Shown: one piece after another, positions 1 to 32,000 of the stretch
Numbering within the stretch: position 1 is the stretch's first letter
Layout: each line of letters opens with the position of its first letter
From: Candidatus Saccharimonadota bacterium
Lineage (GTDB): Bacteria; Pseudomonadota; Gammaproteobacteria; Enterobacterales; Enterobacteriaceae
Assembly: GCF_964059045.1 (NCBI RefSeq)
Contig: NZ_OZ060402.1
Span: 1 to 32,000 of the forward strand
Length of the DNA stretch: 32,000 nucleotides
Reading direction: 5' to 3'
Notes under the pieces: generated by a model
Told to the model about the DNA's origin: nothing
The model's database searches: none
The model's input: only the letters and a program-made list of their open reading frames with translations
Made by a program: the position numbers and the translations under genes

Positions 1-215
1 ATATGCAAAACGTTTTAATATCATTTATTTATAATAAATATTATTAATTAAATAAAATATTATTAGTATTTTCATATAATCAAATATTTAATATATTTTT
101 TTATTATCATATTTTACAATTTTTTTATTTGTATATTTTTTTTTTTATTTGTATAATTCTATTAATTTTCAAGATCATAAAAATAAAAATTTTAAAAAAG
201 TAGGTTAATATATTT

Positions 216-11854: not shown

Positions 11855-12967
11855 TTACATTCGAATTGGCATAATAATATATTTAGAAAATGTTTTAATT
11901 GTATCTTCAATTTGAATACTAGATATTGGTATATTTAATATAAATCTAACATTATCACCTTGAATAATATTTAATACATCTAAAATATAATTTACATTAA
12001 AAGAAAATTCTATTTTTTCAAAATTATTTTGATAATGAAGATTGATAATTTCTTCAGCTAATTCATCTATTTGATTATTACTAGTAATTTTTAATTGATT
12101 ATCACTAATTATAAAAGATATACCTCTAAATTGTTCGTTACATAAAATAGCAACTCTTAATATTGAACTACGTAATAATTTTGTGTTAATTTCAATAATT
12201 TTTTTTTTATTACTCAATAAAATATTAGAATAATTAGGAAATTTTTCATCTATCAATTTTGTAGTAAATATTAAATCTTTTTTTTGAATAGATATACTTT
12301 GTTTAGTAATAAATATTTTTAACATATCCTTAGAATAATTTAAAATTTTAATTAATTCTACAACACCTATTCGAGAGATAATAATTGAAAATTCTGAAAT
12401 AAAATTTTGAAATGAAATGTTACAAATAGCTAATCTATAACCATCAGTAGTAACACTACGAATATTATTTTTTTTGATTTCAAATAACATACCATTTAAA
12501 TAGGATCTGATATCTTGTTTAGCCATGCAAAAATAAGTTGATGCAATCATATATTTTAAAAATTTTTCTTGTAGTATAAAACTAGTTTGAATCGAATTAA
12601 TGAACTTTGGAAATTTAGGAAAATTTTTACTATTTAAAGTAGATAAAGAAAAAAAAATTTTATTTGATTTTAAAATTATTTTATCATTTTTTAAATATAC
12701 TTGAATAATAGATTGAGGTGGTAATGAACGACAAATATTTAAAAATTTACGTCCAGGAATAGTTATTGTTCCAATAACATAAGGTGTGGATAAAATAATT
12801 TTAGCTATTATTTCTATTTCTAAATTAGTACTTATTAAAAATAAAAATCCTTTTGTAACATTGATTAAAATATTATTAATAATTGGAAAATCAATATTCT
12901 TACCTAATAAAATACTAATTTTTTGTACAGATTCTAACAATATTTTTTGTTCTATAGTAAATTTCAT
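11855..12967 (-). CDS. dnaN: DNA polymerase III beta sliding clamp
   Basis: 370 aa. MKFTIEQ start and C-terminal IIMPIRM resemble E. coli DnaN (MKFTVER ... VVMPMRL). Lies directly downstream of dnaA. Confidence 0.95.
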   Translation of the reverse strand: MKFTIEQKILLESVQKISILLGKNIDFPIINNILINVTKGFLFLISTNLEIEIIAKIILSTPYVIGTITIPGRKFLNICRSLPPQSIIQVYLKNDKIILKSNKIFFSLSTLNSKNFPKFPKFINSIQTSFILQEKFLKYMIASTYFCMAKQDIRSYLNGMLFEIKKNNIRSVTTDGYRLAICNISFQNFISEFSIIISRIGVVELIKILNYSKDMLKIFITKQSISIQKKDLIFTTKLIDEKFPNYSNILLSNKKKIIEINTKLLRSSILRVAILCNEQFRGISFIISDNQLKITSNNQIDELAEEIINLHYQNNFEKIEFSFNVNYILDVLNIIQGDNVRFILNIPISSIQIEDTIKTFSKYIIMPIRM

Positions 12968-12971
12968 AAAT

Positions 12972-14036
12972 TTATATTGATAATGTTTTAATTAAGTTGA
13001 AAAAGTCATTATTGATGTTATGATTTTTTTGTATTAATTGTTCTATAGTTCTACATGCATGTAAAACTGTTGTATGATCACGTCCTCCAAAAGCATTACC
13101 AATTTCTGATAAACTGTAATTAGTTAATTTTTTTGTAATAGCCATTGCAATTTGTCTAGATAAAACTATTGATCTTAAACGTTTTTTAGATAATAAATCA
13201 GTTAATTTAATTTGATAATATTTTGATACCATTTTTTGAATGATATCAATAGTTACTATTTGTGTTTTATTAAATAAATTGTATAATATTTTTTGAACAA
13301 AATTAATTGTAATTTTTTTATGATTAAAAATAGATTTTATAATAATTGTATTAATTATTATTTCTAAGTCTCTGACATTAGAATGTAATTTTTTAGCTAT
13401 AAAATAAGCTACATCTTTTGATAATAAAATATTTTTTTCATAAGCTTTATGAATGAGAATAGACATTCTAGTATTTAACTCAGGTGGATTGATTGCTATA
13501 ACTAAATCAAAGTTAAATTTTAATTTTAAAAAATCTTCTATTCCTTTAATTTCTTTAGGATAACAATTAGCAGTTAAAATAATTTGTTGATTTCCTTGTA
13601 GTAAAGTATAAAATGTATGAAAAAATTCTTCTTTGCATTTTTCTTTATCTGAAAAATATTGAACGTCATCAATTAAAAAAAAATCTACTGATTTATAATA
13701 ATTTTTTAATCGATCAATTATTTTATATTTTAATGCATAAATTATATTTTTAATAAATAATTTGGAATTAATATATATAATTTTAGCATTTTTTTTATTT
13801 AAAATAACATTATTTGTTACCGCATTTAATAAATGTGTTTTACCTAAACCAGTTTTACTATATAAAAACAAAGGATTGTATTTTTTTCCAATATTGTTTG
13901 CAATTTGATATGTTATAGAACGTGCTAAATGATTAGATTTTCCTTCTACAAAATTATCAAAATTATAGTTTTTGTTAATATTTGAACAATAAGATAAATT
14001 TAATTGAGATTGATTAATATGAATTTGATTTATCAT
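12972..14036 (-). CDS. dnaA: DnaA fragment 2: AAA+ domain III and DNA-binding domain IV (gene interrupted by a frameshift, see findings)
   Basis: 354 aa. FDNFVEGKSN, Walker A GLGKTHLL, Walker B LIDDVQ, C-terminal GGRDHTTVLHACR helix-turn-helix. Collinear with roughly E. coli DnaA residues 115-467. Its ATG overlaps the TGA of the upstream fragment (ATGA). Confidence 0.9.
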   Translation of the reverse strand: MINQIHINQSQLNLSYCSNINKNYNFDNFVEGKSNHLARSITYQIANNIGKKYNPLFLYSKTGLGKTHLLNAVTNNVILNKKNAKIIYINSKLFIKNIIYALKYKIIDRLKNYYKSVDFFLIDDVQYFSDKEKCKEEFFHTFYTLLQGNQQIILTANCYPKEIKGIEDFLKLKFNFDLVIAINPPELNTRMSILIHKAYEKNILLSKDVAYFIAKKLHSNVRDLEIIINTIIIKSIFNHKKITINFVQKILYNLFNKTQIVTIDIIQKMVSKYYQIKLTDLLSKKRLRSIVLSRQIAMAITKKLTNYSLSEIGNAFGGRDHTTVLHACRTIEQLIQKNHNINNDFFNLIKTLSI

Positions 14037-14347
14037 AAAATTATTTTTTTTTTTATTTTAATTGATTTTTCTTTTTCTTTATTTAAAATTTCTTGAATAA
14101 TTTTAATTTTTAATAAAGGATGATTAGGTCCAAAATAACTATAAAGTAATTGATTAAAATCATGAAGATATTTTTTCTTAATCCAATCTAAAACAAATTG
14201 ATTTGGAGCATATAATTCAAATATATTATTATTTATTAATTGAGCTTTTAATGGTCTAATCCACATACTAAATTCAATTGGTGACAATTTATTTTTCAAA
14301 ATAGTTAAAAAATATTTCCAAATATATAATGACACAATATTCTCCAT
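14033..14347 (-). CDS. dnaA: DnaA fragment 1: domain I plus start of the domain II linker
   Basis: 104 aa. EFSMWIRPL and LYAPNQFVLDWI match E. coli DnaA domain I (EFSMWIRPL, LYAPNRFVLDWV). Ends KKKIIL-stop just after an A11 run (plus-strand T11 at 14044-14054). Confidence 0.9.
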   Translation of the reverse strand: MENIVSLYIWKYFLTILKNKLSPIEFSMWIRPLKAQLINNNIFELYAPNQFVLDWIKKKYLHDFNQLLYSYFGPNHPLLKIKIIQEILNKEKEKSIKIKKKIIL

Positions 14348-14723
14348 AATTAATAATTTAACAACATAGATTAATAGAAAAATATTTTTTTATATTTTTT
14401 ATTTTTATAAGATTAAAAACAAATAAAAAAATAAAATTATTATTTAATGTATATTTTAAAAATTATTATTAAAAATATCTTTTTTCATATTTTTAATATT
14501 TTATAATTTATGTAATAATTATATATATTTACTATAAAAAATATAAACAATAACAATCAATAAAAATATTTATAATTATATTTTTTTAAAATATAATTTT
14601 ATTAATGATATATATATTAATAAAAAATATTTTAAACATAAATTGATTTTTATCTTTAAAAAAGATTTTTCAATGCCATAGCCATAAGCAATAACCTTGG
14701 TAAATAAATTACATATGATAGAA

Positions 14724-14752
14724 TTGACATAAATTTACTAGAACAATATATA
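14724..14752 (+). promoter_or_regulatory. Putative sigma-70 promoter for rpmH-rnpA
   Basis: Perfect -35 TTGACA (14724-14729), 17-nt spacer, TATATA (14747-14752; TATAAT follows at 14751-14756), about 45 nt upstream of the rpmH ATG. -10-like hexamers are cheap in this composition, but TTGACA is not. Confidence 0.4.
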
Positions 14753-14797
14753 TAATGAAAATAAATATATTAATAAATAAAATATAAGGATAAAAAA

Positions 14798-18583: not shown

Positions 18584-18725
18584 TTGTGATTTAAGATAAA
18601 TATAAAAATTAAATTTGATTTATATAATAATAAAAATATTGTTTTGTTAAAATTTAAATATATCTTTTTTTATTTTGATTTTTAATTCATATATAAAAAT
18701 TTTTTATTCATATATAAAAAATATA

Positions 18726-18798
18726 TGCCCGAAGGCGGAATTGAACCACCGACACGGGGATTTTCAGTCCCCTGCTCTACCAACTGAGCTATTCGGGC
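18726..18798 (-). tRNA. tRNA-Phe (anticodon GAA)
   Basis: Minus-strand read GCCCGAAUAGCUCAGUUGGUAGAGCAGGGGACUGAAAAUCCCCGUGUCGGUGGUUCAAUUCCGCCUUCGGGCA, 73 nt. 7-bp acceptor stem, D stem GCUC/GAGC, anticodon stem GGGGA/UCCCC with loop CUGAAAA, T arm GGUGG-UUCAAUU-CCGCC. Close to E. coli tRNA-Phe. The 3' CCA is not encoded. Confidence 0.96.
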
Positions 18799-19009
18799 AA
18801 TATTGTTATTTAATCATTAATTTTCTATTAAAGTCAATCTTTTTATTGATTTTTTAATAAAAAATAATTTTATAAGATATAAATAAACTATTTAATAAAA
18901 TATATTTATATATTACAAATAATATAATCACTGCATTATATGCTATTATGCTATAATTAAATTTTAAAATTATATCAAATCCATTATATTAATAAAAAAA
19001 AACATATAA

Positions 19010-19042
19010 CCCTTGAAAGTTTTAATAAGAATCCTCATATCT
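19010..19042 (+). promoter_or_regulatory. Sigma-32 (heat-shock) promoter of groES-groEL
   Basis: CCCTTGAAA (19010-19018), 14-nt spacer, CCTCATATCT (19033-19042). Compare the sigma-32 consensus CCCTTGAA -N13-15- CCCCATNT. About 90 nt upstream of the groES ATG. Confidence 0.75.
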
Positions 19043-19133
19043 GAAGATAAGTACTATTACTTTTAGTATATTTTAATAAATTTTTAAATTTATTAAAATA
19101 ATTTATTAGATTTATTAAAAGGAAAATTATTAC

Positions 19134-22865: not shown

Positions 22866-22989
22866 TTTTGTTGATCTCAAAAATATATAATAATAATAAA
22901 ATTAAAAATTTTAATTTTTAAATTAATTGAATGATTAAAAATATTTTTTAAAATAAAAATCATTTTAAATTAATCAATAGAATAATTTA

Positions 22990-27109: not shown

Positions 27110-27994
27110 TCAAAATAATTTATTCATATTTAATTTTATAAATTTTACAAAATCTATAATTAAAGATTTTTGTTTTTCTTCAGGACGAATAGCTGCATAT
27201 AAATTACTCCATAAACCTTTATATCCCAATTCTCTTGTTGCTACTAAACCTTGTTTTTCGAAATTATAAACTACCCAATAAGGTAAAGCAGTGACTCCCA
27301 TCTTGGCAGATACCATTTGAATTAATAAAGATGTATTATCTACATTTTTAAATAATGGAATGATTCCAGCAGGTTTTAAAAAATGTTTCCAAATATCTAA
27401 TCTAGTAAGATCTATTGGATAAATCATTACTATCTCTTTTTGTAGATCTATCGGTAAAATATTTTTTTTTTTTAATAAAGGATGATCTATAGACATAACT
27501 AAACGAATTTCAAATTTAAAAACAGATAAATAAGATAATTTAGATTGATATAAAATGTCTGAAGTAAATACTAAATCGATTTTACCTTTTTGAAGATCTG
27601 GTTGAGGATTAAATATAACTTCTGATTTTAAGTTTATTTTTCGTTCTGGCCATTTTTTTTTAAATTTCATTAAAATTGGAATTAACCATTGAATACAACT
27701 ATGACATTCAATAGCAATATGTATGGTTTTTTTATAATTATGATAACATGATTGCATAGCTATTTTAATTGTTGGTAAAATTTTTTCAGATAAATTTAAT
27801 AAAATTTTACCTTGTACAGTAAATTCTAAAGGTATACTTTTTCTTATGAATAATTTAAATCCTAATTGTTGCTCTAATTTATTTATTTTATGAGACAAAG
27901 CAGATTGTGTTTGATGTAATTTTATTGCTGCTGCCGTAATTGAATTACTATTTTTTAATTCTTGTAATATTTTTAGATGTTTGATTTCAATCAT
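27110..27994 (-). CDS. metR: LysR-family transcriptional activator MetR
   Basis: 294 aa. MIEIKHLKILQ...LHQTQSALSHKINKLEQQLGFKLFIRKS and IAIECHSCIQWL match E. coli MetR closely. Divergent from metE. About 20 aa shorter than E. coli at the C-terminus. Confidence 0.93.
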   Translation of the reverse strand: MIEIKHLKILQELKNSNSITAAAIKLHQTQSALSHKINKLEQQLGFKLFIRKSIPLEFTVQGKILLNLSEKILPTIKIAMQSCYHNYKKTIHIAIECHSCIQWLIPILMKFKKKWPERKINLKSEVIFNPQPDLQKGKIDLVFTSDILYQSKLSYLSVFKFEIRLVMSIDHPLLKKKNILPIDLQKEIVMIYPIDLTRLDIWKHFLKPAGIIPLFKNVDNTSLLIQMVSAKMGVTALPYWVVYNFEKQGLVATRELGYKGLWSNLYAAIRPEEKQKSLIIDFVKFIKLNMNKLF

Positions 27995-30519: not shown

Positions 30520-32000
30520 AAAATGCCTTATATTAGTAAAAATCATAATCATATTGTATTCATTTACTGCTTGAATCACTTCTTTATCACGAATAGATCC
30601 ACCTGATTGAATAATACAATTTACACCATTCTTTTTTGCTATATCGACATTATCTCTAAAAGGAATAAAAGCATCTGAAGCCATAATAATATTTTTAATT
30701 TTTATTTTTTGGTCTATTAATTTGAGATTTGCTATTTTTGTTGAATATATACGACTTGTTTGGCCTGAACCAATACTAATAGTTTTTTTGTTTTTTACAT
30801 ATACTACAGCATTTGATTTTACAAATTTTACTACTTTCCAAGCAAAAATTGCATCTTCATATTCTTCATGATTTGGTTTACAATTACTAACTATAGTCCA
30901 TGTTTTTTCGTTGATATTTTCAGAATCAATATCTTGAACAAGAACACCACCATTAATTTGCTTAAAACTAAATTTATTTTTTTGTTTTTGAATATTAGAA
31001 CAGATTAATACTCTTATGTTTTTTTTTGTTTCTAATATTTTTAATGCATTTTTACTAATATTAGTTGCAATAATTACTTCAACAAATTGTTGATTAATTA
31101 TAGTTTGAACTGTATCAGAATTTAATAAACCATTAAATGCTATTACACCACCAAATGCAGATGTAGGATCACATTTATATGCAGAGATATATGCATTAAT
31201 AATAGAGATGTTTTCTGATACTCCACAAGGTGTACCATGTTTTACAATAACGCATGCTGGTTTTAAAAAAGTTTTAACACATTCCCAAGCAATATCAGCA
31301 TCAGATAAATTATTATATGATAATAATTTTCCTTGTATTTGTTTTGCAGCAACAATATCAGTAGGTTTTTGAGTATTATCAAAATATAAAGCTGCTTTTT
31401 GATGATGATTTTCACCATAACGTAAATTTTGTTTTTTAATAAGATTCAAATTAATGATTTTAGGTAAATATATAAAATTATTTTTTTCATTATAATATTC
31501 ATTATATTTGGTTTTTAAACATCCAAAAATAATAGAATCATATTGAGAAATATATTCAAATGCTTTACATGCCATGTAAAATTTATTTTTTATAGGAAAA
31601 TTATTATTATTTTCATCAAGTATTTTGATTGCTTTTTTATAATCTAAAGGGTCAGTTAAAACCATAACATCTTGATGATTTTTAGCGGCAGATCGAATTA
31701 AAGTTGATCCACCTATATCAATATAATTTATAATATCATCCATATTATTAATATTTTTTGACATATTTTCTAAAAATGGATATAAATTAACAACAACAAT
31801 GTCAATTGGAATTATATTATATAATTTCATTACAGCATCATCTTTTTTTCTTCTTCCTAAAATTCCTCCGTGAATTTTAGGATGTATAGTTTTTATTCTT
31901 CCATCCATTAATTCAGGAAATTCAGTATAATCTGAAATATTTTTAAAAGGAATGTTATTTTTTTTTAAAAATACAGATGTACCTCCTGTTGATAATATAT
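30511..32000 (-). CDS. purH: Bifunctional AICAR transformylase / IMP cyclohydrolase PurH (5' end lies beyond the window)
   Basis: The track ORF starts at an internal Met ([20 protein letters not shown] = E. coli [20 protein letters not shown], about residue 63). The frame stays open to position 32000 (..[29 protein letters not shown]). The C-terminus NIRHFKH resembles E. coli ..RHFRH. Confidence 0.96.
   Translation of the reverse strand, partial: [495 protein letters not shown]

Follow-up and report, generated by a model that had tools for sequence, protein, structure and literature searches.

The sequence analyzed here, a stretch of 32,000 nucleotides (nt) from contig NZ_OZ060402.1 (assembly GCF_964059045.1, positions 1 to 32,000 of the forward strand) that is called the window below, carries the locus of the replication initiator gene dnaA of Buchnera aphidicola (Eriosoma grossulariae). 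Two open reading frames (ORFs) lie at this locus, and their features are collected in Table 1. The first, in frame A, matched the Pfam family of DnaA domain I (PF11638, DnaA_N, E 4.7e-14). The second, in frame B, matched the families of the AAA+ domain III (PF00308, Bac_DnaA, E 9.2e-53) and of the DNA-binding domain IV (PF08299, Bac_DnaA_C, E 5.7e-29). The gene dnaN starts at 12967, 5 nt 3' of dnaA. An earlier description made from the letters alone, hereafter called the sequence-only reading, had reported two dnaA ORFs in different frames, a run of 11 A (A11), an ATGA overlap of stop and start codons and a TAA upstream of the run, and all four were found as described in the sequence, the ORF list and the Pfam matches.

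Table 1 Features of the dnaA locus, with positions in the window
Feature	Position	Strand	Remarks
dnaA locus of Buchnera aphidicola (Eriosoma grossulariae)	12972..14347	(-)	two ORFs in different frames, jointly collinear with full-length DnaA
Frame-A ORF: DnaA domain I and beginning of the domain II linker	14033..14335	(-)	terminates at TGA 14035-14033; Pfam DnaA_N
Frame-B ORF, 354 amino acids: remaining linker, AAA+ domain III and DNA-binding domain IV	12972..14036	(-)	stop TAA 12974-12972
A11 run on the coding strand (T11 on the plus strand)	14044..14054	(-)	frameshift site; in frame if A12 or A9; includes an A_AAA_AAA slippery pattern
TAA closing the domain III-IV frame, immediately 5' of the A11 tract	14058..14060	(-)	read from the sequence
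ATGA: frame-B ATG (14036-14034) overlapping frame-A TGA (14035-14033)	14033..14036	(-)	read from the sequence
Probable true dnaA start, GTG	14333..14335	(-)	first codon of the public protein of 454 amino acids; other DnaAs begin at the equivalent MSL..
GGAG, Shine-Dalgarno-like motif	14342..14345	(-)	6 nt 5' of the GTG; overlaps the in-frame ATG 14347-14345

On the coding strand the junction between the two ORFs reads TCA ATT AAA ATA AAA AAA AAA ATA ATT TTA TGA. The upstream TAA and the TGA of frame A together confine the switch between frames to 14057-14037, in or beside the A11 tract. DnaA is not encoded here in a single reading frame; the frame changes at the A11 run. Adding one A yields ..IKKKNNFMINQ.., as the sequence-only reading had proposed, and the public DnaA protein CAL4317703.1 carries this same junction. 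Counted from the GTG, the reading with 12 A (A12) encodes 454 amino acids (aa; 100 + 354) with the junction ..KIKKKNNFMINQ.., and the corresponding junction peptide is (K)KKNNFMINQIHINQSQLNLSYCSNINK. The repaired protein was 100% identical to its best match, CAL4317703.1, the 454-aa DnaA of Buchnera aphidicola (Eriosoma grossulariae), and aligned with relatives over its entire length. No second stop or shift was found within the 454 codons, despite a GC content of 18.5%. The lesion is a single base at the A11 tract, and both halves of dnaA are otherwise open and recognizably DnaA.

The GTG at 14335 is the likelier start of dnaA, rather than the ATG at 14347, given the GGAG motif 6 nt upstream and the agreement with the public protein and with the MSL.. 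starts of other DnaAs. The 104-aa first ORF of the sequence-only reading is present in the ORF list from ATG 14347, but from the likelier start it shortens to 100 aa, and the repaired protein to 454 aa instead of about 458. The in-frame ATG, four codons 5' of the GTG, forms part of an ATGGAG Shine-Dalgarno (SD) region. An 'ME..V' prefix of the kind that it produces was also seen in the RefSeq call for the DnaA of E. lanigerum Buchnera and in a Serratia symbiotica protein, which suggests that automatic gene calling tends to start dnaA 4-5 codons too early.

Homopolymer tracts were then considered across the window, whose overall GC content is 21.9%. Coding runs of A or T of at least 9 numbered 30 (20 of length 9, eight of length 10, one of 11 in dnaA and one of 12 in metR), so that the dnaA tract is one of only two coding runs of at least 11. 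The reading frame was broken by one of the 30, that in dnaA; the other 29 were in frame, and the assembly therefore gives no sign of systematic homopolymer error. The DnaA of Pemphigus Buchnera is encoded with an in-frame run of 9 A (A9) at a nearly equivalent position of the linker (nt 292 of the gene, compared with nt 282 here), which points to a lysine-coding A run as a recurrent element of the DnaA linker. Contraction from A12 to A11 is the simplest history of the dnaA tract. The runs show a strong strand bias: on the sense strand 25 of the 30 are A, coding for lysine (AAA), and 5 are T. The first of the A10 runs that the sequence-only reading had placed in mnmG lies at 297-306, not at 296-305.

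In the public record, the dnaN of the window had an exact match, and neither of the two split dnaA ORFs was present in a collection of 15 billion proteins. The E. grossulariae DnaA entry was found in NCBI only; the dnaN from the same genome was listed in UniRef as well, and no second, UniRef-listed DnaA for this genome was found in the protein collection. The intact dnaA of E. lanigerum Buchnera has a CAL entry and, in RefSeq, a WP_ entry as well. From the identity of CAL4317703.1 with the reading that has one added A, and from the pattern of entries across sources, we infer at the level of proteins that the frameshift is present in the deposited DNA, that RefSeq has no DnaA protein for it and that the submitters joined the coding sequence (CDS) across the tract. 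Joining of this kind at such tracts is stated in the methods of bioRxiv 10.1101/2022.08.28.505559, citing Tamas 2008; that work, in which such sites were hand-curated and retained on purpose, is probably from the submitters' own group. Public annotation thus appears already to treat the dnaA of E. grossulariae Buchnera as intact or functional.

The residues of the repaired protein were compared by alignment with DnaA of Escherichia coli and 119 database sequences, giving a set of 120 DnaAs (E. coli numbering is used below). Domain I residues W6, E21 and F46 were retained, as were Walker A K178/T179, Walker B D235/D236, sensor II R334 and the DNA-binding residues R399, D433, H434 and T435; G172 was replaced by S. 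Three substitutions, R285K at the arginine finger of box VII, R281F and D269N, occurred only in the two Eriosoma Buchnera among the 120 DnaAs, so that neither the arginine finger nor R281 is kept. Evolutionary rate was compared by taking the Kimura distance of each protein to its E. coli orthologue as a ratio to that of two other Buchnera (Formosaphis and Pemphigus). The ratios for DnaA were 1.71 and 2.03 versus 0.82-1.41 for eleven neighboring genes. DnaA is thus, as far as these alignments indicate, specifically accelerated in Eriosoma Buchnera, about twofold. The intact E. lanigerum copy is accelerated as well, and more strongly. Among 221 columns invariant in 11 other DnaAs, 34 were changed in both Eriosoma symbionts, 19 of these to the same residue, and the changes private to one copy numbered 15 in E. 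grossulariae and 32 in E. lanigerum. Because the intact copy has the same changes, the constraint on DnaA was probably relaxed or altered before the two lineages split, and hence before the frameshift. On this comparison the acceleration is not attributable to the frameshift, and the frameshifted copy appears to be the more conservative of the two. Since the split, both Eriosoma lineages have kept dnaA open, bar the one shift, over about 40% amino-acid divergence. The observation of an Eriosoma-clade DnaA that combines R285K, R281F and D269N with an approximately twofold acceleration may be new.

The anatomy of the locus places it beside a class of frameshifts already described. A single indel makes up the lesion and falls within an A/T homopolymer of about 9 or longer; apart from it dnaA is intact, free of other stops and indels. 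In its anatomy the dnaA case appears to belong with the poly(A)-tract frameshifts already known from AT-rich endosymbionts of insects, for which rescue by slippage during transcription is the usual outcome (Tamas et al. 2008; Wernegreen et al. 2010; Williams & Wernegreen 2010); it has in common with them the single indel, the long sense A run and the otherwise intact gene. For long poly(A) runs in Buchnera and Blochmannia, slippage has been reported to correct 12-50% of transcripts (review PMC5009743). In Blochmannia vafer about 30% of transcripts were full-length, the essential replication genes dnaX and dnaG were frameshifted likewise, and the slippage cases include visC with an 11-A tract (PMC3017870).

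We favor, with a probability of roughly 55%, the explanation that the run has genuinely contracted by one base, from A12 to A11, within a linker that tolerates small changes, and that slippage still yields full-length DnaA, though less of it. The deletion would have fallen in a lysine-coding poly(A) run within the variable domain II linker, and the frameshift would be genomic. Rescue could follow either of two routes, the second of which was absent from the sequence-only reading. RNA polymerase may slip on the T11 template and so give a share of A12 or A9 transcripts; a mixed mRNA pool containing in-frame dnaA transcripts would be expected from the literature. Alternatively, ribosomes may slip back by one base on A_AAA_AAA; sliding of E. 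coli ribosomes on runs of A has been reported (PMC4363877). The protein that results from such a -1 slip, with the junction KKKNNF, does not differ from the one encoded when the mRNA has gained an A. By either route full-length DnaA would still be produced, at reduced yield. Domain II of DnaA is known to vary in length, as was also visible in our alignment, and the linker should tolerate one lysine more or less, which would make any in-frame product usable. Ribosomes remaining in frame A would stop at the TGA, and some might restart at the overlapping AUG to give domains III-IV as an incidental by-product. A lower dosage of DnaA would be tolerated because constraint was already relaxed in the Eriosoma Buchnera lineage. 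Of the three explanations put forward in the sequence-only reading, which made no choice among them, a genuine frameshift with slippage rescue fits best on the single lesion, the long sense A run, the open halves, the key residues kept and the match of the public protein to the repaired reading.

Programmed ribosomal frameshifting of the dnaX type was considered for the same tract. The A_AAA_AAA within it conforms to the slippery heptamer X_XXY_YYZ, and in this the A11 run resembles the sites at which ribosomes slide or shift by -1 on A (Koutmou et al. 2015; dnaX-type A_AAA_AAG), a -1 slip again giving KKKNNF. The RNA downstream folded at -3.7 kcal/mol (z = +0.82 versus shuffles), that is, with no structure beyond that of the shuffles. 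The dnaX-type mechanism was rejected, as there was neither an upstream SD-like motif nor downstream structure; the dnaA tract differs from dnaX-type sites in lacking both stimulators, and any ribosomal share would be unprogrammed sliding.

Several points count against the favored explanation. Rescue, like the length of the tract in the genome, is inferred. Slippage maintained by selection is usually argued from a frameshift shared among strains; here the nearest DnaA relative in the collections is 60-61% identical and not frameshifted, and a metagenome scan for the flanks of the dnaA tract, with A9-A13 allowed, gave no match. No SD-like or structural stimulator of ribosomal frameshifting accompanies the tract. 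In addition, dnaA may matter little, as its approximately twofold acceleration and the loss of its arginine finger suggest, and the frameshift may be neutral decay.

Three other explanations were weighed against a genuine contraction with slippage rescue. The assembly error of the sequence-only reading can be broadened to the proposal that the true or majority tract is A12 (or A9), with dnaA intact and A11 either a consensus error or one allele among chromosome copies; Buchnera carries many such copies per cell. Runs of 11-12 A/T are the hardest to call and the dnaA tract is among the two longest coding runs in the window, dnaA is otherwise perfect and is normally an essential gene, and the public protein corresponds to A12; these points speak for a miscall. 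The argument is weakened by the 29 other long coding runs, which are in frame and include the A12 at 27462-27473, and by the lack of a second, UniRef-listed DnaA where dnaN is listed and the E. lanigerum DnaA has a WP_ entry, which suggests that the deposited DNA is itself shifted. The presumed group of the submitters, moreover, hand-curates such sites and keeps them deliberately (bioRxiv 10.1101/2022.08.28.505559). We therefore regard a miscall or heterogeneous tract as unlikely, although it is the alternative to be taken most seriously. A functional two-piece DnaA, in which domain I (about 100 aa) and domains III-IV (354 aa) are separate chains and the second is made by termination-reinitiation at the ATGA, has in its favor the exact overlap of ATG and TGA and the conservation of both halves. 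Chance formation of the overlap was assessed by simulation, in which a single A was removed at 50 runs of at least 8 sense-strand A, all in genes of the window other than dnaA. The new stop and a start codon of the downstream frame overlapped as an exact ATGA in 6 of the 50 simulated deletions, some start codon lay within 10 nt of the new stop in 10, and the shifted frame first met a stop at a median of 15.5 nt from the tract. The ATGA was on this count rejected as a designed coupling signal and is most likely a chance by-product of the shift in AT-rich coding sequence. Moreover, the initiating Met of frame B is not conserved, with L, I or W aligned to it in relatives, and no G, and hence no SD-like motif, occurs in the 20 nt 5' of the frame-B ATG, a stretch that spans the tract. 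The neighboring dnaN, 5 nt after dnaA, is likewise without an SD-like motif upstream, so SD-less coupling may operate in this genome and SD-independent reinitiation at the ATGA is not impossible. The overlap does not exceed chance, and the split is not conserved: every relative examined encodes DnaA as one polypeptide. Loading of DnaB in E. coli requires a DnaA in which domain I is tethered to domains III-IV, and no split DnaA is known. The third option of the sequence-only reading, a split DnaA coupled through the ATGA, is thus unsupported and appears very improbable.

The remaining alternative is early pseudogenization, in which the lesion is recent and neutral, the slippage product irrelevant and initiation independent of DnaA, as in endosymbionts without dnaA. 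It overlaps with slippage rescue, as slippage products would arise whether or not they matter. The elevated distance of DnaA to its E. coli orthologue (1.7-2.0 times that of two other Buchnera, versus 0.82-1.41 for the 11 neighbors) is consistent with such decay, as are the changes R285K, R281F and D269N. Loss of dnaA has been reported in the Buchnera of two Cerataphidini aphids, Ceratovacuna nekoashi and Pseudoregma panicola (bioRxiv 10.1101/2025.07.09.664008). A search of the window for DnaA boxes (TTWTNCACA) found 3 sites, compared with 6.4 expected, and no cluster; since the origin probably lies upstream of position 1, this count is uninformative. The only perfect box (TTATCCACA) is at 12785-12793 (-), inside the 5' part of dnaN, and none was found upstream of mnmG (1-215) or of dnaA (14348-14797). 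The absence of a DnaA-box excess would fit with decay, but the origin region proper is outside the window. The sites usually occupied by mutH and dnaT, moreover, lack these genes. Mutational decay is opposed by the single lesion, with 454 codons open at 18.5% GC, by the intact DNA-binding, Walker and domain I contact residues, and by private changes fewer than those of the intact E. lanigerum copy (15 versus 32). The open frame in both lineages through about 40% divergence implies continued selection. On balance early pseudogenization seems improbable, a little more so than a miscall. The sequence-only reading had remarked that decay of DnaA would be notable, and this finds some backing in the acceleration, the lost arginine finger and the loss of dnaA in other Buchnera.

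A related and speculative proposal, which we consider rather unlikely, is that DnaA-dependent initiation is in the course of being lost in Eriosoma-clade Buchnera and that the A11 shift is the earliest lesion to show it. If this were true, the arginine finger (R285K), R281 and D269 would have been lost before the split of E. grossulariae and E. lanigerum, with the ATP- and DnaA-box-binding residues kept; DnaA might already be a weak initiator, or a DNA-binding regulator only, whose dosage could now be cut by a frameshift. The locus would then be an intermediate on the path to full loss of dnaA as in Cerataphidini Buchnera, Blochmannia and Wigglesworthia.

Poly(A) slippage frameshifts are recognized in AT-rich endosymbionts, and one further case of slippage rescue adds little in itself. 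The value of this one lies in the gene, the master initiator of replication, which has been lost in several symbionts including some Buchnera. Neither a dnaA frameshifted at a poly(A) tract nor the E. grossulariae case itself turned up in searches of the literature. Compared with the published slippage class, the present case differs in the gene affected. It differs also in rate: the B. vafer genes evolve within the genome-wide distribution (PMC3017870), whereas dnaA here appears to be accelerated in a lineage-specific manner. Genes of the class are treated as functional by annotators (PMC3017870; bioRxiv 10.1101/2022.08.28.505559), and so is the dnaA of E. grossulariae Buchnera. The comparison with endosymbionts that have no dnaA runs along other lines. 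Blochmannia and Wigglesworthia lack the gene. With them and the two Cerataphidini Buchnera the present genome shares the life of an obligate symbiont, eroding replication and repair genes, a relaxed DnaA and the lack of a DnaA-box cluster in the window; it differs in that dnaA is complete bar one base, with the DNA- and ATP-binding residues kept. The replaced arginine finger, the approximately twofold acceleration and a frameshift that would reduce dosage may together mark a living intermediate toward DnaA independence. The locus is also a caution for pipelines that would call dnaA either a pseudogene or two genes.

The order of genes in the window is mnmG, atpBEFHAGDC, gyrB, dnaN, dnaA, rpmH, rnpA, yidC, mnmE, tRNA-Phe, groES/EL, efp, dnaC, rsmD, ftsY, rpoH, a gene for a HAD-family hydrolase, metR, metE and purH, which is the Buchnera arrangement. 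In Pemphigus Buchnera mutH lies between mnmE and groES, and in Formosaphis Buchnera dnaT lies beside dnaC. No remnant of mutH (expected at 18584-19133) or dnaT (expected at 22881-22989) was detectable anywhere in the window, which likewise lacks yidD, recF, rsmG and atpI. Loss of mutH would increase the rate of homopolymer indels, provided that mismatch repair is gone. A second frameshift had been suspected in purH at an A9 run (31958-31966), the ORF list having begun the gene at 31908, and was rejected, as the frame is open to the end of the window.

The spacer between mnmE and groES holds a tRNA-Phe gene (GAA; 18725-18799, minus strand); no other RNA gene was detected in the window. No homopolymer in the window is longer than the sense-strand A12 at 27462-27473 (-), which lies in frame within an intact metR of the LysR type (27110-27994); this run would be equally prone to slippage and would yield out-of-frame transcripts. 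An intergenic T11 is located at 136-146 (+), about 70 nt 5' of the start of mnmG, in a region that should adjoin the replication origin.

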